This document shows positions 21,432 to 42,900 of a DNA stretch of 64,000 bases, piece after piece; the first letter of the stretch is position 1; the number at the start of each line of letters is the position of its first letter. The stretch is from an uncultured Pseudomonadota bacterium. Lineage in GTDB: Bacteria > Pseudomonadota > Alphaproteobacteria > RF32 > CAG-239. The notes under the pieces are model-generated. The model searched no databases, had not been told where the DNA came from, and saw only the letters and a program-made list of their open reading frames with translations. Made by a program: the position numbers and the translations under genes. The DNA lies in assembly GCA_949298065.1 (NCBI GenBank), contig CASFUZ010000005.1, positions 2,139-66,138 of the forward strand, in the 5' to 3' direction.

Positions 21432-21556
21432 TTTTTCAACTTGTAAACCTTTTTTGTCAAAAATTTCATTAAAACAAAAAAAATCTGTTGCATTTTAGAA
21501 AAAATAGCCCTAACTTGATTAGACAAAAAAGTATAAATCTTCAAATTATTATAACT

Positions 21557-22324
21557 ATGAATCACAAGTACTTACGACCGACAGATGACTTTTGTATGCT
21601 TAAGTCTCTGTCTGAAGCAAAACAAATGTTTGAAGCTGACGGTTTTTACGGCAAAGTAGCCTTAGGGCTAACCCGTCTTACAAGAACCGAACCTCTACCC
21701 AAAATGGTTTTAGGTAAGCGTCCTCCGGAACAGATTAACATCATCCAGTGGATTTGTTATGCCGGAACCAAAGGTATGGTTGGTATTCCTGCATTTTACC
21801 ACAAAGAAAATTATGCTGATTATGGAAACATTCAACTCCTTACGGAAATTCCGATTAGCACAACTTTTGTTGCGGATGAGGAAATATTCTGCTTTGAAAG
21901 AGAAAAAAACACAGACAACTCTTTCAACCCGACAATCTTTTCTTTGGCCTTTATTGACAATGAAGAAATGGCCATGTTCATAGCAAGGATTTGGGGAGAA
22001 AAGCCGGTTAGCGCCACCTTAAACAAACTAACAATCGTCAACAACGGCATTCTAAATACAGAATTTCCGTTGTGCGAAAATTATGTGGCTCCGATTTGGA
22101 AGGTTAAATGTGAAAACGGCGGTTTTCGTATGCTGGCAGCCTTCACGGATGATTATGCCATATTCTCAGAATATGACACAAAAACATTCAACTGGCAGCC
22201 TCTTTCGCCGGGAAAAAGCTTCATGAGAGATAACAAGCTCTACACTATTTCCGATTCGCCAACCTATGGCTATTGCTTCAAGGAAACAATGTCTGTATCC
22301 TTTAACAAAAAACCGTCTCCTTAA
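21557..22324 (+). CDS. Hypothetical protein
   Basis: 255 aa from ATG 21557 (MNHKYLRPTDD). No recognisable motif. Confidence 0.45.
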   Translation: MNHKYLRPTDDFCMLKSLSEAKQMFEADGFYGKVALGLTRLTRTEPLPKMVLGKRPPEQINIIQWICYAGTKGMVGIPAFYHKENYADYGNIQLLTEIPISTTFVADEEIFCFEREKNTDNSFNPTIFSLAFIDNEEMAMFIARIWGEKPVSATLNKLTIVNNGILNTEFPLCENYVAPIWKVKCENGGFRMLAAFTDDYAIFSEYDTKTFNWQPLSPGKSFMRDNKLYTISDSPTYGYCFKETMSVSFNKKPSP

Positions 22325-24955: not shown

Positions 24956-25098
24956 TATTCTTCCCCCTAAAATAGTAACATTTTTAAAGATTATACACAA
25001 AAAACAATAACAAAAGCCTAATTTAAACTAGTCAAAAGCAAAAAAATATTGTACAATTTGGACAAAATTACAATTTTATCCAGAAAAAGAGACAAAAA

Positions 25099-26970
25099 TT
25101 GGCCAAGAAGCGCATAGAAAAATTAGAAGGTGCTTTTCCCGACTTCTTAGATGAAGAACAAACCTCTCTTGACCAAATTTTTGACATCATCTCCCTCTCT
25201 TTCCAACCCCAAGCCCCTGACGCCCCCGTACTTTCCAAAGATGCGCTTGAAGCTGCTGATAGTCTTTACGACAACAAAATTTCAAAAATCTGCGACGACA
25301 TTCTCTCTCTTGAGCAAAATGCAGCCACTCTAATTCAAGCTGATATTGAAAACCTTTACAAAGGAAGCTTCGTTAGAGATTATGCCAAACGCTTCCAAAT
25401 CAGCGAAAAAGAAGCAAAAGAACAGTTACGTCAAGATTTAGCAGAGAAGCTTAATGCCTTGGGTATGAATTGCATAGACAAGCGACACTACGCATTGCCC
25501 CGCGAGATTAAACATATTATTCGTATGGATTTTTACGGCACCATTGATAAGATTGATGAAAAAAATGATGGTAAGTCAGCTAAAGAACTATCCCACATCT
25601 ACCTCAACCGCAATCCACAAAAGACCGAAGATATCAGACTTCAAGACTATGACTTGACAGCATCACCGATTTGGATGATATATCGGCAGTTCAGAAGTTT
25701 TCGTCTTCTGGAAAGAAATCTGCCCAAACTTCTCAAAGATGCAGGCATCACTCCAGAGGAATTTATACATCTTAATGCCTATGACATTTCTCAGGTTTTA
25801 TACAATCACTACATTAACAAAAGCAAGCCCGATGCTGATAAATCAGAGCGGGCAAATTTGTTTTTAGGAGCCAAATATCGTTTTGTTAAAACCTTCATTC
25901 GCCACAACAAGAAAGCTTTCAAACATATTATGAACTTACGAGGCGTAGACCCACGTTATACGGACACCCTCATTAAGAATATGGAACAATACGGCATAAC
26001 CTCTGGCTTTGATGTCGTTGAAAAAGAATACACTGCAGAAACACTGGAAATCTTAAAGAAACACAAACTCGTGCCGGAAGATACTGAAGTTGGCTCTCCG
26101 ATAAAAGACAAAGAAATTTCAAAAATAAAAAAAGCTGGACTAATTAATCTAATTTTAGCAAGAGATGAGAATGGGAATCCCGTAACCGGACCGGATATTA
26201 CCATTCATCACAAAATTGCCGTTCAAGATAGTGGCGAAAGAACCAACTTTGCCGAAGTTAACCAGTTTCAAAATCTTTGTATTATCATTGAACCCTACCA
26301 CTTTTTTGCACACTCACTAGATCGTACAAAGAATATAAACGGAGCCGAATGCTACGTTTCAAGAATTGAGATTGGAAAAAGAGTTGCCTTTTATGGCGGT
26401 TTCAATAAAATTTTCCAACTGGAACATGACTTTGGAATGCCGCATTATAACGAATATGACCACGAAGTCTTAAAACAAATCGGCCTCCAACAAAACGCTG
26501 ATAGTGAAATAACGTCCTATTGGGACGAGCAAAAAAAGCTCTCCCGCCGCAAAAAATTTTCGCGAAAAAAGAAAAAAATCCACTCAAAAGAAAAAACAGA
26601 AAAAGAAAAGACCCCACATAAACAAAAGAAAAAAGAAAACTTTTCGCAGCCCGACAAAATGGAGCAAAAAAACAATATATCTCAAGCAAAGAAAATTCCT
26701 CTGAAAGATACTGCACAATCTTCAAAAGCAGAAAAACAAGAAAACAGCTCATCAAAACCGCATATTTTATCCAAACGCATAGAACAACTTACGCGCAAAA
26801 GAGATGAATACAACAAAATTCGTGCCGAGCTCATAGAAAAGCGCAAACAATATCTAAGCTTGCGTGCCGCCAAAAAATCTGCCATAAAAACTATTAGTCA
26901 ATTTGAAGATGACGAAAAATTTGAGAAATTTATTCAATATGCCATAAGGATGCAAAATAAACAAAAATGA
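25099..26970 (+). CDS. Large uncharacterised protein with internal HNH-like nuclease motif and Lys-rich C-terminal tail (putative toxin)
   Basis: 623 aa. IHHKIAVQDSGERTNFAEVNQFQNLCIIIEPYHFFAH fits a His-Me finger (HNH) pattern and is homologous to the motif in the 208-aa ORF at 41829. Residues ~470-623 are a K/R-rich tail (SRRKKFSRKKKKIHSKEK...). Translationally coupled (ATGA) to an immunity-like ORF. Confidence 0.4.
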   Translation: MAKKRIEKLEGAFPDFLDEEQTSLDQIFDIISLSFQPQAPDAPVLSKDALEAADSLYDNKISKICDDILSLEQNAATLIQADIENLYKGSFVRDYAKRFQISEKEAKEQLRQDLAEKLNALGMNCIDKRHYALPREIKHIIRMDFYGTIDKIDEKNDGKSAKELSHIYLNRNPQKTEDIRLQDYDLTASPIWMIYRQFRSFRLLERNLPKLLKDAGITPEEFIHLNAYDISQVLYNHYINKSKPDADKSERANLFLGAKYRFVKTFIRHNKKAFKHIMNLRGVDPRYTDTLIKNMEQYGITSGFDVVEKEYTAETLEILKKHKLVPEDTEVGSPIKDKEISKIKKAGLINLILARDENGNPVTGPDITIHHKIAVQDSGERTNFAEVNQFQNLCIIIEPYHFFAHSLDRTKNINGAECYVSRIEIGKRVAFYGGFNKIFQLEHDFGMPHYNEYDHEVLKQIGLQQNADSEITSYWDEQKKLSRRKKFSRKKKKIHSKEKTEKEKTPHKQKKKENFSQPDKMEQKNNISQAKKIPLKDTAQSSKAEKQENSSSKPHILSKRIEQLTRKRDEYNKIRAELIEKRKQYLSLRAAKKSAIKTISQFEDDEKFEKFIQYAIRMQNKQK

Positions 26971-27377
26971 ATGAACTAATCAAACATATCAAACAAACAG
27001 CTTCCGCACGCTTAGCTGCACCGGTAAACACACAAAAAATTATTCTTTGCCAAAAAGAACTCACCCAAAACGGCAATGCCATGCTCCCTGATGCCTTTTT
27101 GGTGATTTTACACAGTTTTAATGCTGTTTCTTATGACGGAGCCAGAATTTTCGGCATAAATCCTGAAAGCAAAAATTTTATGGATATTGTTTTAGCCAAC
27201 CAAATGAGCCCCCTTGCCGGAAAGCAAAATATAGTTATTTTAGGTTGCGATGAATTTGATTATCTCGCCTACAATACAGAAACACAAACTTATCAAATCA
27301 TTGACAAAGAAGACCTTGAAGTGTTAGAAGAATATTCAGAGATTGAACCGGCCGTAAAGCACATTTTAAAGATTTAA
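26967..27377 (+). CDS. SUKH (SMI1/KNR4)-like immunity protein candidate
   Basis: 136 aa. LPDAFLVILHSFNAVSYDGARIFGI resembles the SUKH N-terminal motif. Clear paralogue of the ORF at 42448 (shared ELT..N.A.LP/IP..L..G..IFG/FYG and LAYNTETQTYQIID/LLYNENEKVYTIAD). Confidence 0.45.
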   Translation: MNELIKHIKQTASARLAAPVNTQKIILCQKELTQNGNAMLPDAFLVILHSFNAVSYDGARIFGINPESKNFMDIVLANQMSPLAGKQNIVILGCDEFDYLAYNTETQTYQIIDKEDLEVLEEYSEIEPAVKHILKI

Positions 27378-30344: not shown

Positions 30345-32387
30345 ATGGCAGAAGCAGAAGAAGAAAACGAAGCCCCAGAAGAAAAGCCCGTTCAACCGGA
30401 AACAGAAAGTAACGGAGAAATCGGAGCTAACAAATTTTTAGTCAAAGAAAGATTTGAAATAGACTATGCACAACCGCTCCCCTGGCTTGATTGTAACGGA
30501 GCCAAAGCCTATCGTGTGATAGACCGCATAGATACCAAACGCGGCCTTTTTGCTCTGCTCTGTAGCAACAAAACCTGCCCACGCTCCACCATTTTGCCCT
30601 ACATCAAATCTCTTGAATGCCGAAGCTTAATGAAACTCGTAGAGTTTGGCATTGTAACCTGGTTGCCGGAAAAATCGCGAAACCTTGCGCTTATCTATAA
30701 AATCCCTTATGGCAAAGTTTTTGAAGGAGGCAAAACCACATTAGATATTCGCAATTCAGAAAAATTTAAAAGCACGCTCATTAGCCTGCTTTCAGTAGTT
30801 GAGGCACTAAAAAACTATAACATAACCCACAGAGCCATACGCGCCGATAATCTTTATTATGCCAATGCAGATAAAACCGAAATTATGATTGGCGATTGTT
30901 GCGCATCATTTCCAAGCTTTCATCAACCTCCGGCATACGAAACTATAGAAAATATGCTTTCCATAGCAGAAGGAAGAGGTAATGGAAGCGAAAAAAATGA
31001 CATATATGCGATTGGTGCGGTCATGATGGCCTTATACTTAGGGCATGAAGTTGGAACAGATTTAAGTTTACCGGAACTTTTAAGGCTAAAATCCAAAAAA
31101 GGAAGTTACCAAACCTTACTTGGAGATGAACATATTCCAAATCAAATTTCGCCGATACTCCGTAATTTATTAACGGACAACATTGAAAATCGCCTGAACT
31201 ACATACAAGTCTACAACCTTTTAGATGGAAAGACAAGCAATTACACATCAGCCACGAGTACGGATCGCCCCAAAAGAACCATATCCTTTAACGGAGAAAA
31301 ATTTTATAACACCCGAGATTTTGCCATAGCACTCAGCAATTCACCGGAAGAAGCTTATGAACTCGTAAAATCCGGCAAATTACTGGATTGGGTAAAAAAC
31401 GGCTTAGAAAACGAAAAACTGGCAGGAAAGATTGAAAAAATATTAAATGCTTTTCCAGAAGGCACAACCTCCACAGAAGTTCTGATGTCAAAGATTTGCA
31501 TTTTACTTTCCCCAGACCTTCCAATCAAACTAAACAACCTCTGTTTATTTCCCGATGGTGCCCCCAAAGCCATCTACTATGCGTTGCGCAATAGCACGGA
31601 CACCACCCCGTTCAAGGAACTTTTTTCCACAGAAATAATCAAACTTTGGTATCAGGAACAAGAACATATGCGCTCACCCGCCAATGCTGGAGAGTTTCGC
31701 ATTTATGTCAATCGGCAAGATATCGGCTATGGAATAGACCGCATAATGTATGACTTTGATGACGACATTCCCTGTGTAAGCCCCTTATTAGGAGATGAAT
31801 TTGTCAATTCTCCGACCAGAATTTTAAGAGCATTAGATAATACATATGCCAAACAAATTGTTAAAAGCATGCCTTATGACCGAAACATTATAGCCTATCT
31901 TAGATGTAAAATGGGAAAAAAAATAGATGGAATTTTAACAGATTTAAGCACCAACAAAGAATATTTACAAGCCAGTGCCGTATTAAGATTATATACCTCA
32001 ATGCAAAATAAATTCGGACCGGCACAACTGCCGCATTTATCGCAATGGCTGTCAAGCTCATCAATGTCCATAATCAAGAGTTATCATAATCTCAAATATC
32101 AAAAATTTTTAGAAAGAGAATTACTTAAGATCAATAAAAATGGCAAACTCCATGAGCTTTGCGACATTTTGGAAGATGAAGAAGCACGCAACAAAGACAA
32201 AGCGAACTATGCCAAAGCCGTAAGCGACATAAACTTTTTACTTGCCGAAAAAAACAAAATACTTAACAACAGCTCCAAATTAGATGATGATGCGCGTAAT
32301 CTAGCCATACGCTTTACCTCTATTTTAGCAATAATGGTCATGCTTGTATCATTTCTGTTCAACCTCATCATGTGGATATTACAATGA
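30345..32387 (+). CDS. Membrane-anchored protein with eukaryotic-like (Hanks-type) protein-kinase fold and divergent catalytic loop
   Basis: 680 aa. ITHRAIRADNLYY aligns to the HRDLKPENL catalytic loop with the HRD Asp replaced by Ala. IMIGDCCASF aligns to the DFG region. DIYAIGAVMMALYLG aligns to subdomain IX. Acidic N-terminus and a single C-terminal TM (ILAIMVMLVSFLFNLIMWIL). Confidence 0.5.
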   Translation: MAEAEEENEAPEEKPVQPETESNGEIGANKFLVKERFEIDYAQPLPWLDCNGAKAYRVIDRIDTKRGLFALLCSNKTCPRSTILPYIKSLECRSLMKLVEFGIVTWLPEKSRNLALIYKIPYGKVFEGGKTTLDIRNSEKFKSTLISLLSVVEALKNYNITHRAIRADNLYYANADKTEIMIGDCCASFPSFHQPPAYETIENMLSIAEGRGNGSEKNDIYAIGAVMMALYLGHEVGTDLSLPELLRLKSKKGSYQTLLGDEHIPNQISPILRNLLTDNIENRLNYIQVYNLLDGKTSNYTSATSTDRPKRTISFNGEKFYNTRDFAIALSNSPEEAYELVKSGKLLDWVKNGLENEKLAGKIEKILNAFPEGTTSTEVLMSKICILLSPDLPIKLNNLCLFPDGAPKAIYYALRNSTDTTPFKELFSTEIIKLWYQEQEHMRSPANAGEFRIYVNRQDIGYGIDRIMYDFDDDIPCVSPLLGDEFVNSPTRILRALDNTYAKQIVKSMPYDRNIIAYLRCKMGKKIDGILTDLSTNKEYLQASAVLRLYTSMQNKFGPAQLPHLSQWLSSSSMSIIKSYHNLKYQKFLERELLKINKNGKLHELCDILEDEEARNKDKANYAKAVSDINFLLAEKNKILNNSSKLDDDARNLAIRFTSILAIMVMLVSFLFNLIMWILQ

Positions 32388-34916: not shown

Positions 34917-35210
34917 ATGGATAAACTAAAACTAGTTAAAACAATCGTATTTATACTAACTTTTCTGCTTGTTTTCGGAAGCCTAATGCTTATCGGCACC
35001 CTTTTCAAAAAGACCAAAACTCTGCCTCGCCTGCCTAAAGAAGTTAATCTGCAAGAACCTATCGGTAGTCGTATATCAGATTTACAAACCAAGGAAAACC
35101 TCCTTTATCTGACCATCCGCGACGGCGGGCTTGCCGATAGAATAATAATTTTTGATACAATAACCGGACAAAAAGTTTCTACCATTTACCTAAATCAGAG
35201 GGAACAATGA
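34917..35210 (+). CDS. Small membrane-anchored/secreted hypothetical protein
   Basis: 97 aa. N-terminal hydrophobic helix (TIVFILTFLLVFGSLMLIGTLF). ATGA overlap with the next ORF. First gene of the coupling-protein block. Confidence 0.4.
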   Translation: MDKLKLVKTIVFILTFLLVFGSLMLIGTLFKKTKTLPRLPKEVNLQEPIGSRISDLQTKENLLYLTIRDGGLADRIIIFDTITGQKVSTIYLNQREQ

Positions 35211-36145
35211 GCGATACAGAGAATGAAGAAACATTAGATTTAAAAACAGAGCTCAAAAGCGAAGAAGCTTTGCCTCAAAATAAAAGCTATGAAGAAGAAA
35301 TCGCCGAAGATGATGAGTTTGAGCGGTTGCTCAACCAATTCATCAACTCCGAGCTGGAAGGCATAGATACCGGAATAGAGGAACCATCAGCCCAACAGGA
35401 GCAAACACCTGCACCTGCGGCTCAAACACAAAACACCTCCCCGAGAAATAAAGGTCCGGAACTGGATACAAACGAAAAAGCTTTGTTTGATGCTTATAAA
35501 AACTTCTCAAACTCCATTATTATGATGGCAAGTATGAATGAGCTTCCCACTCCCGATTTTCGGCTTGATACATCATTGCTTATTCCTCATTACAAATACA
35601 AAACAGGCTCACTGATTGCTTCAGAAGCTATTAGCGGATGGGAAATTATGCTCCAACTTCATCCGGAAGAACTTCAAGGCCTAAGCCCTGACACTTCAGA
35701 TGAAGAATTGTTAGATTTTGCCGAACGCTGTGAAGATGAACTTTTGCAGCTTGCCATTATCTCTTATGTTGAAATCTTAATAGAAATGGAAGGCTGTGAG
35801 ATAGCCATTGAAGAACGCCGCCTCAAAGCCCAACGCCGCAAGATAGAAAAAGAGATTTATGAGGAACATCAACGCCGCTTAGAACGCAAACAACGCTATA
35901 TTGAGGCTATTAAGAAAAAAGATTTTCCGATTGATGCCGAACGCTTGGTAACCAACTATTTCCGCACGGCGCAAAAAGACCCAGATGGGGCCTATCAGGT
36001 TCTGATAAACAATCCGGCAGTTTACGCCCCCATAGACACCGCCAAAATCAAGCCGCGCTTTTTTGGGCTCATTAAGCCCACCCCACAAGACGGTATCAGA
36101 ATAAACCGTGAAATCGGAGAATTTTTAAAAAGGCTAAAAGTTTAG
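35207..36145 (+). CDS. Acidic hypothetical protein (candidate secretion substrate or adaptor)
   Basis: 312 aa. Highly acidic N-terminal half, coiled-coil region, positively charged C-terminus (KIKPRFFGLIKP...INREIGEFLKRLKV). No known domain recognised. Confidence 0.45.
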   Translation: MSDTENEETLDLKTELKSEEALPQNKSYEEEIAEDDEFERLLNQFINSELEGIDTGIEEPSAQQEQTPAPAAQTQNTSPRNKGPELDTNEKALFDAYKNFSNSIIMMASMNELPTPDFRLDTSLLIPHYKYKTGSLIASEAISGWEIMLQLHPEELQGLSPDTSDEELLDFAERCEDELLQLAIISYVEILIEMEGCEIAIEERRLKAQRRKIEKEIYEEHQRRLERKQRYIEAIKKKDFPIDAERLVTNYFRTAQKDPDGAYQVLINNPAVYAPIDTAKIKPRFFGLIKPTPQDGIRINREIGEFLKRLKV

Positions 36146-36225
36146 CGAAAATATAAAAAATATAGACAAAAAAGATTTTTAATGCTAGAATATAGTTAAA
36201 TAAAAAGACTGACAGGACAAAAACA

Positions 36226-37719
36226 ATGGCTGACACTCATGATACAACAAAACCACATCCGGAACCGCAACCCCGTCCGGAGCCTAAACCTACGGTCAAA
36301 TCTGACGAAGCAGCTCCATCCGGCCAGCAAAACACTGATGACAAAACCGCCACTTTTAACGAAAACAGCGGCTCGGAAAATACTGCCCAAGTCAATCAAG
36401 ATGTCTCTTTTGACTCATTGTCCGTCAGCGAACAACAAGATTACCTCACCATCTTGGAAGAAAAAAACAAGCGAGGCCTACTTTCAGTCAGTGAAAAAGC
36501 CGTCTTAGATAATAATAAAAATAACGACAAGACCACCGGTAATAGAAATGTTGGTGATTTTGGTGCCAGAGATGGTGATGAAAATGAAGATCCTGATCCA
36601 GAGAAAAAAGGTCCTTTCAAAGAAAAAGATGTCATTAAATATATGTATGAAGACTGGCTTTTGGAAGGAGCTAACTGGCTTTGGTGTAAGACCGCTGCCA
36701 AGCTGGACAAAGGAGCTTATTGGGCTCAGCAAAAGATTCTTGAACGTATGGCTGAAAAGCGCTTAGAAAAGAACAAAGTTTACGATACGGAAGCCAGACA
36801 TGAACAAATAGCTAAACGCGCCATATCCTCTGGTCAAACTAATATGGATGCCGTCCAAAAGCACGAAGATGCTCAGCTCAAGAACCTCAAACTTCTTAAA
36901 GAAGGCAAATATGCCGAAGCTAATGTTTCAGCCACGACCAAAGTTCTGTTAGAAAACATGGACGACAAAGAAAAAGCGCAATTCTTTAAGATTTCTGAAC
37001 AAGGTATCAAGAATTTTTACAACAATATCAGAATGGCAGAACAATTTGGCTCAAATTACGCACAAGCCGGCATGACCTTTGATCTTGCACAAAACAAAGA
37101 CTACTACCAAGGCAAAAACTTAACTGAAGAATTTGAGAAACAAAAAGCCCATGCCATGCAGCTTTTCGCCAGAAGAATAGACGAAGCCGTCAAGCGTGGT
37201 GAAGACCCGATGAAAGTTGCCGCCAAACTCTTTAATATGTCTAAAAAGGCACTTGAAGCTTCCAACAAGACCATAGAAAAGCGCAAATTTTCAGAAGCAG
37301 ACAAGAAACCAAATAAAGATAAAACTATTCTTAAAAATGGTAACTTAGTTACATACATCAGCAAAATGAGCGATGAGCTCAAAACCATAGCCACTCCAGC
37401 ACAAGGACAAAAACGTGGTATGTATGAAGCTGCGGTTGCTGACATGAATTTTGACAAAGAGGCAAACTTAAGCCAAGAAGAGATTAACAAAGCTTTTGCA
37501 ACAATGCTAATACAGAAAGACGAAAATAACCAACACCGAGGCCGTATTGCAGAGCTCAAACAAAAACTCGGTCTAACCACTGAAAATATGGATGAATTTA
37601 CCAAGATTTACAACCGAAGACAAAAACAAATACGGACTAGGGAATATAACCAACGTGCCGCAGACACATTATCCGGCATGGCCGCATTGGGAAGCCATAT
37701 GTCCGGAGGACGTGATTAA
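36226..37719 (+). CDS. Hypothetical protein with Pro-rich N-terminus and coiled coils (candidate effector)
   Basis: 497 aa. PHPEPQPRPEPKP repeat, long coiled-coil segments, Arg-rich C-terminus (NRRQKQIRTREYNQR). No known domain recognised. Confidence 0.45.
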   Translation: MADTHDTTKPHPEPQPRPEPKPTVKSDEAAPSGQQNTDDKTATFNENSGSENTAQVNQDVSFDSLSVSEQQDYLTILEEKNKRGLLSVSEKAVLDNNKNNDKTTGNRNVGDFGARDGDENEDPDPEKKGPFKEKDVIKYMYEDWLLEGANWLWCKTAAKLDKGAYWAQQKILERMAEKRLEKNKVYDTEARHEQIAKRAISSGQTNMDAVQKHEDAQLKNLKLLKEGKYAEANVSATTKVLLENMDDKEKAQFFKISEQGIKNFYNNIRMAEQFGSNYAQAGMTFDLAQNKDYYQGKNLTEEFEKQKAHAMQLFARRIDEAVKRGEDPMKVAAKLFNMSKKALEASNKTIEKRKFSEADKKPNKDKTILKNGNLVTYISKMSDELKTIATPAQGQKRGMYEAAVADMNFDKEANLSQEEINKAFATMLIQKDENNQHRGRIAELKQKLGLTTENMDEFTKIYNRRQKQIRTREYNQRAADTLSGMAALGSHMSGGRD

Positions 37720-38219
37720 TGATAAAAAAAATATTCAAATTTCTCAAAGCATTGGTTGTAGGTTCAATTTGGACGGTTATTTTTGTTTACATCGCCGAAA
37801 ATATTATGATATATTTATGGAACTTTGACATCCTAAACACGCGCGATTGGCAAATCATTAATAGCTTTTGGGAAAGTGGTGGCAAAATCAAAGCCGGAAA
37901 AGACTACATTTTTATTTTAATGCTCCTAGCTCTCATTCCTTTGTGGTTTTGTGGTTGGAAATATTTTTATCATGTAGATTTCATAAAAGTTTTATTATTC
38001 CCGATAACTTGGTATAATAACCGAATGATAAAAAAATATGGAGAGAACACAAAGCGCATTGTTCTCAAGAACATGGGCACCACAAAAACCAAGCCCAATA
38101 TGGAAGAGATTATTGAAAAAAGATTAAAAGAAAGCAGCAAGCCGCGAGAGAAAGAAACCGGAAAGATTCGTCAATCCATTCACGACAGAATAACTGCTTC
38201 AGAACAAAATAAACAATAA
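37719..38219 (+). CDS. Membrane protein, paralogue of the N-terminal domain of the next ORF
   Basis: 166 aa. WNFDILNTRDWQIINSFWESGG...IFILMLLALIPLWFCGW aligns with WRFDIFNNDHWLYAWNKWNEGW...AFVLIILTFIPLWLTGW of the ORF at 38308. Confidence 0.5.
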   Translation: MIKKIFKFLKALVVGSIWTVIFVYIAENIMIYLWNFDILNTRDWQIINSFWESGGKIKAGKDYIFILMLLALIPLWFCGWKYFYHVDFIKVLLFPITWYNNRMIKKYGENTKRIVLKNMGTTKTKPNMEEIIEKRLKESSKPREKETGKIRQSIHDRITASEQNKQ

Positions 38220-38307
38220 CACTAAGCACTTTTTAACCAATTACGGAGTAATATTTATAGTATAAGGAATAATCTGCCCGACCAGCAGATAAAAATTGGA
38301 GAATAAC

Positions 38308-39561
38308 TTGAAACCCTTACTCATCTTAACAAGAATCATTTTTGTCGGATGCTTCTGGAGTATCTTTTTTCTGGAAGGCATAAGGGTTATTATGCTCCGC
38401 AACTGGCGTTTTGACATTTTTAACAATGACCACTGGCTCTATGCCTGGAACAAATGGAATGAAGGATGGATTATTGATGACCCCAAAGAATGGGCTTTTG
38501 TTTTAATCATACTAACTTTTATCCCCCTGTGGCTCACGGGGTGGGCCGCTCTGAGCCTAATTCCCTGGGGAAAAATTTTCTTAAACATCATCATGTTTCC
38601 CATAAAAGCTTTCCGCAACCTATTCTACAAACCGGTTAAAATCATTGCGAAAAGCGCAGGGGCTCCGGTTGTTAAGAAGAAAAAATCATATAAGGAAATT
38701 CGCCCACGCGGCACACGCGCACCGATTACGGATTATAATGACCCCATACGCCCGAGCGTCTTAAGCAATGCAGCCAAACCGCTGGCTCCAGCAAAACCTG
38801 CGCCGATTAAGAAAGAAGAAACTTCAGCTCCGGCAACCTTTGAGCATAATTTATTTAAGTTTGATGATGACACGGATGACGATTTTGACTTTGATTTTGA
38901 TTCCTTTGACAAGAAATTCAATGAAGAGAAAGCCACAGCCACCCCTAAAGAAGATAAACCCACAGAAGAAACAAAACCGATCAGCAAAAACAAAAACAAC
39001 AAAGAAAAACGAAATACAGCCCCCAAAAACACTTCGCCCACACCACAACAACCACGATCTGGAGGCAACTCTACACTTGAAGTTTTAAAACAAAAAGGCT
39101 ACGAAGTTATCACCACAGCCACAATCAAAAACAGCGTCATTGACTTTATCGGCGTTTCAGACAAACAAATCATCCTCTGTTTGCTTGACAAAGAACCAGG
39201 AGATTGGCTGGCTGATGAAGAACGCTTTAATGATGAAGAACCTTTATGGTTTTCAGAGAGCAGCCATCGCATATCCCCGGTCAGAAAAGTAGACATTGTC
39301 CGCAAGATTTTGGCAGATAAATTATCCGAATCTGATATGAATTTTGAGATTAAAGCCTTTGTAATTGTCCAAATAGGAAATATCATAAATGCGGAAGATA
39401 TGTTTGAAACATGGGATGAATTGAATATCTCAGTAACCAGAATTGACAGGGGAACACCAAAGGAATTAAAATTATTTTCTAAGACACTAGAAGAAGCAAA
39501 TTCGCGTATTGAAAAAGAGCAATTTGAAAAGATAAAAAAATTAATTCGTAGCATAGCCTAA
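38308..39561 (+). CDS. Membrane protein with paralogous N-terminal TM domain, acidic repeat linker and C-terminal cytoplasmic domain
   Basis: ~417 aa. Start uncertain: TTG 38296 in the ORF track, or TTG 38308 with a ggag SD. The linker is DDDTDDDFDFDFDSFDKKFNEEK. Immediately upstream of the coupling protein. Confidence 0.5.
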   Translation: MKPLLILTRIIFVGCFWSIFFLEGIRVIMLRNWRFDIFNNDHWLYAWNKWNEGWIIDDPKEWAFVLIILTFIPLWLTGWAALSLIPWGKIFLNIIMFPIKAFRNLFYKPVKIIAKSAGAPVVKKKKSYKEIRPRGTRAPITDYNDPIRPSVLSNAAKPLAPAKPAPIKKEETSAPATFEHNLFKFDDDTDDDFDFDFDSFDKKFNEEKATATPKEDKPTEETKPISKNKNNKEKRNTAPKNTSPTPQQPRSGGNSTLEVLKQKGYEVITTATIKNSVIDFIGVSDKQIILCLLDKEPGDWLADEERFNDEEPLWFSESSHRISPVRKVDIVRKILADKLSESDMNFEIKAFVIVQIGNIINAEDMFETWDELNISVTRIDRGTPKELKLFSKTLEEANSRIEKEQFEKIKKLIRSIA

Positions 39562-39591: not shown

Positions 39592-41814
39592 TTGCAAAAA
39601 AGAGGAGAAGAATGGGAAGAATATGATCATGCCGTCCAATGGATGGTTATGACCGTCGTCATCACCCTTATCGTAACAATCGCGCTGGCAATCATCTCTA
39701 TGCCTTTGGGCTACCTCATTGGCTCTGGCATATCCAAGGATTCCCTAAACGATGTCGGTAAATTTATCACCACGGTTTTTGATAATCCGTCCTATTTATT
39801 TTCACGCTATTGGAACTGGTTTCGCCAGCTATCCGCCTATCGCGGAAGTTTTTCGGTAAGTTTGTGGCTTCCGATTCTCCCCATACTCTCCCTCCCTTTT
39901 GGTTTAATAATCGGAGCGGTAACCAATCCCTATCGTTTTCAGTCAAACATCCATGGTTCAGCCCGCATTGCCGAATATAAAGATATTAAGAAAATGGGCT
40001 TATTTGATGGTTTCTGTATGGTTGTCGGCAAATACAAAGGCCGTCTGCTGATGTTAAAAGAAACCTTATCCACCTTGTGTTGCGCACCTCCGGGAACAGG
40101 TAAAACCGTTGGCGTGGTTATTCCGACAATTTTCAACTCACACGGAATGAGTATTGTCGTCAACGACCCCAAACCGGAATTATGCTATTCCACAACTGGA
40201 GCAAGAGCCAAAGACGGACCTGTTTTTGTCATTAACTGGGGTGCGGAAGACAACCCTGCGGAAGGCATTTATTACCCAAGCTGGAATCCATTGTCGCCCA
40301 ATGCTTTACCGGCTCCGGGACCGGATAGAGATATGTATGTTGACTCCATGTGCAACATTTTGGTTGAAGACCCCAAAGGCGGTGCCGACCCGCACTGGTC
40401 TAAGACAGGTCGCGCAGCATTAACCGGATTCATACACTTTATTGCCTCCAAATGCGAGCGCGCCCGCGCTAATGACTACTTCATCGGTCGCATTTATGAA
40501 GGAAAATTGGATGAAGAAGATAAACGTGTCTTGGAAGGTTATTATCTGGATATGCGCGACCCGATGTCCGCCCGCGCCATCCAAAACCTTAGGAATGATA
40601 ACATTACCATAGACAATTATCTACCGATTGGCACATGGCAGTTACTGCCGGAAAAATGGATAGGACACGAATCCTGCCTGGCTATGATTTTGGAATGGAT
40701 TACAGAAGCCCAAATCAAGCAAGCGCAAGACATCAAACGCCGCATTGAAGAAGGCGACCAAATGGCAGCGATGTCAGACCCCATGCGTACGATGCTTGAA
40801 GAAGCTGTTGATGAAGCCAGACGTTTTGGCTACTCTCCTCGTTGTATTACGGAATTAAGCCAACTATCCTCCATGCCTGATAAAGAGCGCGGCTCCGTAT
40901 TATCAACGGGTTTTGCGGGTATTGGTATTTTCAAGAACTCGGCCGTTGTTTCGCGTACCAGTTTTTCTGATTTGCAGTTCAAGGACTTACGCGGTATGAA
41001 AGACCCGATTACGGGTGAATGGAAACCAATTTCGGTTTATTTGTCAGTTAACCAAGTTGATGCGCGCGCTTTGGGTGTTATTTCGGGAACTTTTATTGAG
41101 CTGATGTCCTCTTACCTAATTGCCAACCCGCCAAAATTTGTAAACAAAACCGATGGTCAAATGGGACCCTTCCCTTGCTTGTTTGTGCTGGACGAGTTCC
41201 CGCAAATGCCGAAGCTGAAAGCCATTATTGATGGTCCGGCGGTCGGACGTGGTCAAAAAGTTTCATATTTGCTGATTGGACAAGACTTAGGCCAAATTTC
41301 CGGTAAATATGGTAAAGATGACCTGGAAACGGTTATCTCAACAACCGCATGCAAAATCATCTTATCCCAAAACAACGAGCAAACAGCCCAGCGTTTTTCT
41401 AAGATGATTGGTAACAAAACCGTCCAAACCACATCTTATTCAAAGAACGAAGGAGCTCTTGGAAAAGGAAGCAACCCGTTTGCCAAGAACGTATCTTATC
41501 AACTTCAAGGAACTTCGGTTATCAGCACCACCCAGCTTTTGAGCTTGCCAATGCTCAAACAGGTCGTTTTGATGCAAGGCTTCATTGACCGCCCGATTAT
41601 GGCAGATTCGCCTCGTTGGTATCTTGATTCCACAATGAAGAAGTTGGCTGCCTTACCGCCCTCACCTTATGTTCCGGATTGGATAGTTGCTCAGCGCGAA
41701 GATATTAATGAGGATATGTTAGCCAAACTTGGCATTGATTATGATCCTGAAGCAGATGACGGCGATGACGAGTTTGACGAAGAAGATGAAGACACAACAA
41801 CCAACCAACAATAA
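39592..41814 (+). CDS. virD4: Type IV secretion coupling protein (VirD4/TraG/TraD family ATPase)
   Basis: 740 aa. Two N-terminal TM helices. Walker A PPGTGKTVGVV. Walker B LFVLDEFPQMPKL. T4CP-like all-alpha and nucleotide-binding domain order. Acidic C-terminal tail (DDGDDEFDEEDEDTTTNQQ). TTG start at 39592 with an aagga SD. Confidence 0.8.
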   Translation: MQKRGEEWEEYDHAVQWMVMTVVITLIVTIALAIISMPLGYLIGSGISKDSLNDVGKFITTVFDNPSYLFSRYWNWFRQLSAYRGSFSVSLWLPILPILSLPFGLIIGAVTNPYRFQSNIHGSARIAEYKDIKKMGLFDGFCMVVGKYKGRLLMLKETLSTLCCAPPGTGKTVGVVIPTIFNSHGMSIVVNDPKPELCYSTTGARAKDGPVFVINWGAEDNPAEGIYYPSWNPLSPNALPAPGPDRDMYVDSMCNILVEDPKGGADPHWSKTGRAALTGFIHFIASKCERARANDYFIGRIYEGKLDEEDKRVLEGYYLDMRDPMSARAIQNLRNDNITIDNYLPIGTWQLLPEKWIGHESCLAMILEWITEAQIKQAQDIKRRIEEGDQMAAMSDPMRTMLEEAVDEARRFGYSPRCITELSQLSSMPDKERGSVLSTGFAGIGIFKNSAVVSRTSFSDLQFKDLRGMKDPITGEWKPISVYLSVNQVDARALGVISGTFIELMSSYLIANPPKFVNKTDGQMGPFPCLFVLDEFPQMPKLKAIIDGPAVGRGQKVSYLLIGQDLGQISGKYGKDDLETVISTTACKIILSQNNEQTAQRFSKMIGNKTVQTTSYSKNEGALGKGSNPFAKNVSYQLQGTSVISTTQLLSLPMLKQVVLMQGFIDRPIMADSPRWYLDSTMKKLAALPPSPYVPDWIVAQREDINEDMLAKLGIDYDPEADDGDDEFDEEDEDTTTNQQ

Positions 41815-41828
41815 GGCAAAATGAAGCG

Positions 41829-42455
41829 ATGTGGGAATGGTCCAACCGGCAAAAGAACAATTCTCCAACACCGGAGGTAACCCAAAAAAACTCCGCATCG
41901 CTTCTTGCCGCTTATAATGACTTGATTGGCAATAGCTATGCCACATATCACAGCCGCGTCAAGAATATTCAGATAGCAGACAATCCCAACAATGAAAAAA
42001 TTACATCTCCGTCTGCCGAAGAAGTCTTTGCTCTGGTTCAAAGCAAAATCCGCGAATATAATCTGCCCGCAAGCACCCAAATTATTGAGAAAGAATATAT
42101 GCCGCAATCATGGCAGGAAATGAACCGTGCCTTTGATCGCTACCATAATCTACGCGCGCGTTTTTTTAAGCTTTTGGGCTATTCTGAACAAGAAAAATGC
42201 CAACAAGCCGGACTAACGGAAGAAGACATAAATTGCTTGAGAAACGGTTTTGCGCCAGAAAACTATAACATACATCTCAAAATTCCGGCAGATTTTGGAG
42301 GGTTGGCTGAATTTGAAAATTTCAGTCTCATCAAAACCCATCCCTATCATGACAACATTCACAGAATTATAGATATGCAAATTGAAAACAACTTTTTAAG
42401 GGTTTACAAAAAAATTTATCTCCCTTGGTTTGAAGGAAAATTTTATCATGATTAG
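41829..42455 (+). CDS. Short HNH-like (His-Me finger) nuclease toxin candidate
   Basis: 208 aa. IHLKIPADFGGLAEFENFSLIKTHPYH fits the H...GG...N...H pattern. Homologous to the motif in the 623-aa ORF at 25099. Followed by a SUKH-like ORF. Confidence 0.4.
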   Translation: MWEWSNRQKNNSPTPEVTQKNSASLLAAYNDLIGNSYATYHSRVKNIQIADNPNNEKITSPSAEEVFALVQSKIREYNLPASTQIIEKEYMPQSWQEMNRAFDRYHNLRARFFKLLGYSEQEKCQQAGLTEEDINCLRNGFAPENYNIHLKIPADFGGLAEFENFSLIKTHPYHDNIHRIIDMQIENNFLRVYKKIYLPWFEGKFYHD

Positions 42456-42900
42456 CCGCTACCTAAATTACTTTCGCCAAGCAACGGGTTGTGTTTTTTT
42501 TGAGCCCGCGGTTGAAAGCAATTTATCAAAAATAAATCACGAATTAACTACACGCAATTTTGCCCCAATCCCCGAAGAATATTATAACTTTCTAAAACTA
42601 ACAGACGGGCTTATTTTCAATGGCATAGAGTTTTATGGTTCCGTTCCGCATTACAGAGAACTTAAAGAATACACTTTTCCCAATCTTATCACAGTCAATG
42701 AATATTACTTAAACTATGACTATTTCATTCGCAAACTTGTCATTGGCCGAATTTCGGAAAATTTACTACTCTACAATGAAAACGAAAAAGTTTATACAAT
42801 TGCCGACCGAATAAACCTTCGTCCAATTTTGGAATGCGAAAGTTTTGTTGCCTTCTTAAAGATTTTTTATGACCACGCACTTCCGCCGAATGAGCGCTGA
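42448..42900 (+). CDS. SUKH (SMI1/KNR4)-like immunity protein candidate
   Basis: ~150 aa. IPEEYYNFLKLTDGLIFNGIEFYG matches the SUKH N-terminal motif. Paralogue of the ORF at 26967. Overlaps the upstream toxin-like ORF. Alternative start at 42430. Confidence 0.45.
   Translation: MISRYLNYFRQATGCVFFEPAVESNLSKINHELTTRNFAPIPEEYYNFLKLTDGLIFNGIEFYGSVPHYRELKEYTFPNLITVNEYYLNYDYFIRKLVIGRISENLLLYNENEKVYTIADRINLRPILECESFVAFLKIFYDHALPPNER

Follow-up and report, generated by a model that had tools for sequence, protein, structure and literature searches.

A toxin-type HNH protein and its SUKH partner form a conserved chromosomal gene pair in uncultured gut Alphaproteobacteria

Toxins with an HNH domain and immunity proteins of the SUKH family have usually been studied as weapons that turn over quickly and are shuffled horizontally between genomes. 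In Escherichia coli K-12 the gene yhhZ, annotated as a 'putative endonuclease', lies immediately upstream of yrhA and overlaps it by 4 nt, and its product combines a T6SS_HCP domain (E 1.6e-11) with a weak HNH match. YhhZ is placed in group 32 of the His-Me finger nucleases, which share a beta-beta-alpha-metal unit with a catalytic histidine ending strand 1 and a metal ligand, either His or Asn, at the first helical turn (PMC5714182). Here we describe a related gene pair, encoding a 623-aa HNH-like protein and a 136-aa SUKH-like protein, in a 64,000-nucleotide stretch of DNA from an uncultured member of the Pseudomonadota (GTDB lineage Alphaproteobacteria; RF32; CAG-239; assembly GCA_949298065.1, contig CASFUZ010000005.1, positions 2,139 to 66,138 of the forward strand). 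We refer to the whole of this stretch as the window and number it from its first letter; the pair occupies positions 25,099 to 27,377. The same cassette remains fixed at a single chromosomal position throughout a deep clade of gut Alphaproteobacteria that are abundant but uncultured. A first-pass annotation of the window had read this pair, together with a shorter pair further along, as the signature of a polymorphic toxin system.

The features of the long pair, in window coordinates, are these:

25029-25057, + strand: promoter-like site 42 nt 5' of the TTG start (weak match, 9 of 12 consensus positions)
25099-26970, + strand: gene for the 623-aa putative nuclease, with a TTG start; multidomain HNH (His-Me finger)
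25099-25449, + strand: residues 1-117, fast-evolving helical N-terminus (from the family alignment, the N-termini of genome loci and AlphaFold)
25450-25965, + strand: residues 118-289, lineage-specific, mostly alpha-helical domain with the motifs IRMDFYGT and SPxWxxFRQFRSF
25966-26433, + strand: residues 290-445, toxin-type HNH domain, with a profile match to the YhhZ/Hcp-ET1 and LXG toxin C-terminal DNase modules
26194-26322, + strand: residues 366-408, predicted beta-beta-alpha-metal core (H370, H371, D377, N388, N392, H401, H405 and D408)
26434-26967, + strand: residues 446-623, basic tail with a disordered K/R-rich stretch, two helices and a cationic end (..RMQNKQK)
26967-26970, + strand: ATGA start/stop overlap (4 nt) of the two genes, indicating translational coupling
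26967-27377, + strand: gene for the 136-aa YrhA-family SUKH protein, with an ATG start; presumed cognate inhibitor

A segment of the 623-aa protein had been proposed to be homologous to a 208-aa protein encoded some 15 kb away in the short pair. The similarity is weak but real: BLASTP aligns 113 aa at E 0.005, including HHKIA..PYH in the first protein against HLKIP..PYH in the second, and hhalign of the two family profiles gives E-values of 6.7e-5 and 4.9e-5 with probabilities of 64–68%. It becomes convincing with YhhZ as a third party, in that the 208-aa family profile matches YhhZ residues 258-373 over 114 columns (hhalign probability 96.3%, E 1.8e-9) and, for the 623-aa family, its HNH-domain profile aligns with the core of YhhZ (probability 86.4%, E 4.7e-6). 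The two SUKH open reading frames (ORFs) are likewise clear paralogues: the 136-aa protein matches the 156/150-aa ORF of the short pair by BLASTP at E 5e-5, and a hidden Markov model of the 136-aa family, run against all window ORFs, matches the 150-aa ORF at E 6.5e-11. This second paralogy had been proposed as well, for a '156-aa ORF at 42448'; the ORF is real, and from the ATG at that position it is 150 aa long.

Searching plasmids with the 208-aa protein (tblastn) leads to the C-termini of type VII secretion system (T7SS) LXG toxins (Bacillus subtilis, E 4e-9), to a pre-toxin-TG protein and to proteins labeled 'HNH signature'; in both toxin records inspected, on the B. subtilis plasmid NZ_CP064819 and the Kosakonia plasmid NZ_CP107078, the next gene is a 'YrhA family protein'. 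The toxin domain, which spans about 130 aa, has the signature (V/I)HHK..(L)DDGGTN..NL.LI.N.PYH; a MAFFT alignment of the HNH domains with three toxin C-termini shows that the 623-aa family keeps HHK, D377, N388, N392-L and PYH and has a 7-residue insertion. Because both partners match YhhZ or LXG toxins on the one side and YrhA on the other, both pairs belong to one recurrent toxin-domain/immunity cassette, which is used in T6SS (type VI secretion system) as well as T7SS contexts, and the toxin/immunity ancestry of the pair is well supported by these relationships. The earlier identification of an HNH-type nuclease domain with a SUKH partner thus stands. Tox-REHH, a classical polymorphic C-terminal domain carried by RHS, LXG and other proteins (bioRxiv 10.64898/2026.09.22.753552), was considered as a relative of the 623-aa protein and dropped; we regard it as an analogy and claim no sequence relationship.

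The 623-aa protein is very probably an active His-Me finger nuclease of toxin/immunity ancestry, held in check by its co-translated YrhA-type SUKH inhibitor. In the 75 aligned representatives of the family, H371, H401 and H405 are present without exception; 73 of them have H370 and N388, and 64 have N392. The AlphaFold model has strands at residues 367-371 and 393-397 and a helix at 400-406, with H371 closing strand 1 and both H401 and H405 on the helix, so that the predicted structure conforms to the His-Me finger topology. The spacing of the core equals that of YhhZ, the LXG toxins, pyocin AP41 and the colicin DNases residue for residue. On the model of colicin E7, we take H371 to be the general base and H370, H401 and H405 to be metal ligands. 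The sub-threshold matches of the family that recur are all to HNH-type domains, and include Pfam HNH (E 0.09), Col-Pyo_DNase (0.064), AHH (0.042) and the LtrA En domain (1.7). PDB sequence searches with the full-length and HNH-domain profiles returned only a polyQ artefact and an insignificant LtrA match, and tblastn of the 623-aa protein against plasmids gave no match.

That the protein is no nuclease at all, with the HH..N..H..H pattern a relic or a coincidence in a structural or binding protein, strikes us as extremely unlikely. Such a reading would agree with the lack of a significant direct match to any HNH model and with fold searches that were essentially negative, Foldseek having returned nothing. 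It would also agree with the degenerate sites of the paralogous 208-aa family and of a subfamily of about 600 aa. It does not sit well, however, with catalytic residues that are near-invariant in 75 diverse representatives, with a spacing equal to that of YhhZ, pyocin AP41 and the colicin DNases and residues placed on a predicted beta-beta-alpha unit, or with the retention of a cognate-type immunity gene.

The downstream 136-aa ORF is, on profile evidence, a SUKH protein. It scores 60.7 bits against the NCBIfam model NF038335 ('YrhA family'; curated cutoff 55 bits), as compared with 72.1 bits for the 150-aa paralogue, and hhalign of its family against the E. coli YrhA fragment gives E 4.9e-5. 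Among 25 relatives, SUKH_6 is matched by eight, SMI1_KNR4 by seven (best E 1e-6) and SUKH_5 by six; the window protein itself has no Pfam match at E ≤1, and the family profile retrieved no sequence from PDB. The protein contains a highly conserved acidic segment, YQIIDKEDLEVLEEY (also written IIDKEDLEVLEEY), and the net charge of the family ranges from -7 to -10. The SUKH protein would most likely bind the nuclease 1:1 and block its DNA-binding or active face, probably by way of this acidic segment.

The family of the 623-aa protein comprises 22 clusters, and 189 representatives at 50% identity, and 'hypothetical protein' is the only name it carries in the public records sampled. Scanning species-representative genomes gave 32 loci, 30 of them complete, and all 32 come from metagenome-assembled genomes (MAGs) of uncultured gut Alphaproteobacteria (Candidatus Scatocola, 'uncultured Azospirillum' and Rhodospirillaceae). 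The order pepA (on the opposite strand), HNH gene, SUKH gene, sua5 is found in 29 of the 30 complete loci, which are from different species, and also in one distant metagenomic member, with identities to the window proteins of 24–87% for the nuclease, 28–88% for the SUKH protein, 40–91% for PepA and 67–95% for Sua5; the immunity protein is more conserved across loci than the nuclease. A SUKH gene lies downstream in L036 and L041 too, and in L042, a locus that is not syntenic with the others. The ATGA overlap in the window points to translational coupling of the two genes, and a 4-nt overlap recurs in at least 15 of 29 loci; in most of the others the SUKH start touches or overlaps the nuclease stop. 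In the window sua5 begins 3 nt past the stop of the 136-aa ORF, and the pair lies in an operon with sua5 and a methyltransferase gene.

Several observations on this locus may be added here. In the window, as in the six species closest to it (L001-L006), TTG is the sole start codon available to the nuclease gene, and GTG is the only one available in four other species. The promoter-like site falls in a 98-nt divergent intergenic region shared by pepA and the 623-aa gene; promoter-like sites are no more numerous in this region than in shuffled sequence, and a scan for terminators gave results at chance level. The G+C content of the long-pair genes (36–38%, against a window mean of 41%) is inside the local range, and their A-richness is explained by the Lys-rich tail; a signature of horizontal transfer was therefore considered and dropped. 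The long pair gives no phage signal with PHROGs. In MAG VLC_001 (L022, 5287-7964) there are two tandem HNH paralogues, of 456 and 435 aa, which overlap by 1 nt and both have an intact HH..N..H..H. At L042 (3650-5858) a member of about 600 aa and its SUKH gene are found in an unrelated context, near a Zeta-toxin-like gene and flavin reductases, suggesting that the nuclease and SUKH genes can move as a unit; the subfamily to which this member belongs keeps HH and the Asn and lacks the PYH..H helix.

We conclude with high confidence that the long pair is a fixed core module and not a polymorphic system. The canonical alternative, that of a secreted toxin that varies between strains, with its immunity encoded downstream, and of a short orphan cassette besides, is suggested by toxin-domain and immunity families that are typical of polymorphic toxins, by an immunity gene directly downstream and by two paralogous pairs in one genome; only the second of these is among the four features that define such systems, and the other three defining features were not found. 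The same chromosomal position in 29 complete loci of different species speaks against it, as does the absence of orphan cassettes, orphan arrays or a mobile-element signature at the long-pair locus, where the next gene is sua5. Within one 90% cluster of 14 variants, the proportion of variable columns is 12% in the N-terminus, 4% in the N-domain, 3.2% in the HNH domain and 5% in the tail, so that the HNH domain is the most conserved region where a polymorphic toxin should vary. None of the relatives examined has a different C-terminal toxin domain, nearly all representatives that bear the N-domain carry the HNH-like segment, and the Pfam and NCBIfam searches show no trafficking or pre-toxin domain (RHS, LXG, PAAR, Hcp, FHA, PT-VENN or PT-TG) in the window protein or in 21 homologues. 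With the short copy also fixed, 3' of a coupling-protein gene, and its general-base histidine lost (see below), a polymorphic toxin system is very unlikely, and neither pair bears out the signature that the first-pass annotation had seen in them.

Both parts of the 623-aa protein that flank its HNH domain are distinctive. The N-terminal 117 residues range in identity across the family from 94% down to 11%, with a short motif conserved in the family alignment and in the genome loci (FPDF/PYDYL, then LDQILD/EKILDAL) and AlphaFold helices at residues 47-120. The domain at 118-289 has no match to a known fold and no detectable relative; almost every full-length member examined has it together with the HNH-like domain, whose rate of evolution it shares, and the two are predicted to form a single rigid unit (predicted template-modeling score, pTM, 0.84). 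From residue 453 to 623 the tail contains 47 K/R against 25 D/E, for a net charge of +22; AlphaFold confidence (the predicted local distance difference test, pLDDT) is below 50 over 463-557, beyond which there are two helices. The basic tail described earlier as about 150 aa is thus real, at a length of 171 aa, and the remark that the nuclease motif is unusually not C-terminal holds for this clade; family-wide its length runs from 0 to about 380 aa, and homologues of about 1000 aa have the HNH domain at their very C-terminal end, like classical toxins. The 623-aa protein has neither a signal peptide nor a transmembrane segment. One homologue of 935 aa (P0013) has an EF-Tu/CysN-like GTPase fused ahead of the family region, and is probably a chimeric assembly or gene call.

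The extreme C-terminus is cationic across the family: in 124 of 136 members the final 15 residues carry a net positive charge, the average being +2.9 as compared with +0.24 for the other window proteins (Mann-Whitney p 1.7e-11, the sequences being phylogenetically related). For the window protein itself the last 30 residues come to only about +1, as judged from a 98%-identical homologue with the same C-terminus (P0001). In composition, this terminus is what a type IV secretion signal could look like.

The short pair lies directly behind a gene for a type IV coupling protein (T4CP):

39592-41814, + strand: VirD4/TraG-like T4CP, 740 aa, with an acidic C-terminal tail (Pfam T4SS-DNA_transf, E 1.2e-56)
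41829-42455, + strand: 208-aa HNH paralogue; complete toxin domain of the YhhZ/LXG type, with the general-base His replaced (H149-L150)
42448-42900, + strand: 150-aa YrhA-family SUKH paralogue, counted from the ATG (156 aa from an upstream TTG at 42430)

The 208-aa ORF and the 156/150-aa ORF overlap by 8 nt. In 23 of the 24 fetched loci with a T4CP match the 208-aa gene comes directly after that for the T4CP (in the remaining one, L063, about 2.9 kb lie between them), and in loci with such a match the SUKH partner always follows. The 208-aa family is closer to the true toxin domains than is the 623-aa family, and its profile has pyocin AP41 as best PDB match (E 0.05), with a related LXG C-terminus matching colicin (E 0.003). 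It has nevertheless exchanged the HHK of the toxins for H[L/I/M]K, in all 23 members of the alignment and in all 26 metagenome loci (of 28) in which the motif can be read, and it is without the DD and TN residues of DDGGTN; the metal-ligand histidines are kept. Aligned with pyocin AP41, it has HL opposite HH. With the general-base histidine gone, the 208-aa protein is probably inactive as a nuclease. The net charge of its SUKH partner is -4 in the window and +2 in another species (L033), as compared with -12 to -19 in the YrhA-family partners of toxins. The short pair, previously called orphan-like, therefore seems better described as an exapted, T4CP-associated derivative of the toxin/immunity cassette than as an orphan copy of the long gene. 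Conserved Tyr residues of the 208-aa family were entertained as a source of a relaxase-like catalytic Tyr and rejected, since the true toxins have Tyr or Phe at the same positions and they are thus structural.

The T4CP scores below every NCBIfam equivalog cutoff. Its C-terminal tail (codons ~41740-41811), DYDPEADDGDDEFDEEDEDTTTNQQ, has a net charge of -8 over the last 15 residues. It is 77–98% identical across the metagenome loci, against 36–68% for the 208-aa protein, and is more conserved than sua5; conservation of this order amid far more diverged neighbors is unusually high for a conjugation-type protein. Directly 5' of it, at 35207-39561, are four ORFs (312, 497, 166 and 421 aa) with no significant Pfam, NCBIfam, PADLOC or PHROG match, the latter two of which have in common an N-terminal domain of 2–3 transmembrane segments (BLASTP E 2e-16). 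The operon order around the T4CP recurs in L033. A literature search on type IV secretion systems (T4SS) in this gut lineage found nothing relevant. Further 5', a 680-aa ORF at 30345-32387 has weak kinase-like matches (PADLOC MkoA, E 6.4e-8; NCBIfam MADS6 kinase, E 3.5e-4), its L033 orthologue is given as 'Pkinase (weak)', and a 165-aa ORF overlaps it downstream. A 278-aa ORF on the other side of the long pair, at 21488-22324, has no Pfam or NCBIfam match.

In another alternative, the HNH proteins would nick or otherwise handle DNA for a lineage-specific system of DNA transfer or uptake built around the conserved T4CP, with the SUKH proteins as chaperones or adaptors instead of immunity proteins. 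The position of the 208-aa/SUKH pair 3' of a T4CP more conserved than sua5 would fit such a function, as would a 208-aa protein that keeps its metal ligands and not its general base, and a SUKH partner that has lost its acidic character; Syd, one member of the SUKH family, is a binder of the SecY translocon (PMC3113570). The gene for the 623-aa protein, however, does not adjoin that for the T4CP, the closest relatives are toxins, and no relaxase-like features, oriT or channel genes were identified. We know of no HNH-type relaxases, and we consider a role in DNA processing to be very improbable.

We favor, on a balance that tips only somewhat in its direction, the explanation that the long pair is a self-immunized nuclease/SUKH core module, possibly acting as an exported antibacterial DNase. 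The 623-aa protein would be made in the cytoplasm, with its variable N-terminus, helical domain, toxin-type HNH domain and basic, largely disordered tail; the pair would descend from a polymorphic-toxin cassette and now be fixed and vertically inherited in a deep clade of uncultured gut Alphaproteobacteria. Its most probable use would be as an antibacterial DNase exported along a route particular to the lineage, for which the T4CP system 15 kb away is the leading candidate. Export would be compatible with the toxin ancestry of both parts, with a modular architecture that lacks a signal peptide or transmembrane segment, with the C-terminal HNH domain of the homologues of about 1000 aa, and with a cationic C-terminus alongside a T4CP whose tail is acidic. 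Taken separately, the assignment as an exported effector is tentative, and falls somewhat short of an even chance; passage specifically through the T4CP is unlikely. The more elaborate proposal that both HNH/SUKH pairs and the T4CP operon make up one lineage-specific export system, in which the 623-aa DNase is cargo whose cationic C-terminus is read by the acidic tail of the T4CP, its SUKH protein serves as both immunity protein and secretion chaperone and the catalytically degenerate 208-aa/SUKH pair has been exapted as a fixed adaptor or gate of the coupling complex, is decidedly improbable.

A number of points weigh against this explanation. The 623-aa protein has no significant sequence match in Pfam, NCBIfam, PADLOC, PHROG or PDB, and, as noted, it carries no trafficking or pre-toxin domain. 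No genes for a VirB-type channel or any other secretion channel were seen in the 64-kb window. Synteny at the level of the order, a slowly evolving immunity protein and low variation of the HNH domain within a species are unusual for an effector in an arms race, and the basic tail could be a nucleic-acid-binding extension. Lastly, L022 has no SUKH gene before sua5 in spite of its two intact HNH motifs, the sole exception among the 30 complete loci.

Much of this could be accommodated if the module acted only inside the cell, either as a switch resembling chromosomal toxin-antitoxin or abortive-infection systems or as a housekeeping nuclease, under regulation, in DNA repair, turnover or uptake, with the SUKH protein as its regulator or antitoxin. 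A core-genome pair with a fixed, syntenic position, sharing its operon with sua5 and a methyltransferase gene, would be at home in such a role; so would a protein without trafficking domain, signal peptide or transmembrane segment, whose N-domain and HNH domain co-evolve as a rigid unit, whose HNH domain is the least variable part within a species, whose immunity protein is more conserved than itself, and whose tail suits nucleic-acid binding. We nonetheless hold this to be unlikely, if the most serious of the alternatives considered here. The long pair gives no PADLOC defense signal, and it is unlike type II toxin-antitoxin systems in having a large toxin with its inhibitor downstream; defense and toxin-antitoxin loci are normally patchy, not order-wide. 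All identified relatives of both components are secreted toxin/immunity pairs, and the cationic C-terminus persists through complete turnover of the tail sequence, which suggests a signal-like constraint.

If the 623-aa protein is indeed an exported DNase, it would bring to the antagonism between gut bacteria a carrier domain, and possibly a delivery route, that is new. Should it not leave the cell, the locus would clearly exemplify how a toxin/immunity pair can be domesticated to serve the cell. In both cases, a previously unannotated family, with its 189 representatives, is added to the His-Me finger catalogue, and a copy of the cassette without the general base is seen to be lastingly tied to a type IV coupling protein.

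The closest described relative is YhhZ, an Hcp-ET1 T6SS effector, with YrhA. The core VHHK..D.G..N.F.NL.LI..PYH is the same and a YrhA-type gene lies downstream with a 4-nt overlap, but neither the 623-aa nor the 208-aa protein has an Hcp domain, and in the former the HNH domain is fused instead to a novel helical domain of about 170 aa and a basic tail, and its core has a 7-residue insertion and an extra histidine (H405). The window pair is also a fixed core gene pair and not an accessory of a T6SS island, with no T6SS genes seen in the window. The LXG (T7SS) and 'HNH signature' toxins have a C-terminal toxin domain of about 130 aa that is homologous to the 208-aa paralogue, and a YrhA-family gene downstream; they differ in having recognized trafficking domains and in residing on plasmids or in variable regions, whereas the window proteins are without such a domain and are chromosomally fixed. 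With the DNases of colicins E7 and E9 and pyocins AP41 and S2 the window proteins have in common HH on strand 1, an Asn before strand 2, H-x3-H on the helix and an acidic inhibitor from an adjacent gene, but the Im immunity proteins are four-helix proteins and not SUKH proteins, receptor-binding and translocation domains are lacking in the window proteins, and the similarity of the 623-aa family is below threshold.

The effector/immunity pairs of the Xanthomonadales X-T4SS (X-Tfe/X-Tfi) are alike in consisting of a chromosomal toxin and an adjacent immunity gene, with a VirD4-type coupling protein and a proposed C-terminal recognition element. They differ from the present case in that no VirB channel genes were seen in the window and no XVIPCD-like domain came up in analyses that were not aimed at one. 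As compared with all of these systems, the catalytic and immunity modules are already known, and what is new is the carrier domain, the fixation in the core genome and the degenerate paralogue linked to a T4CP.

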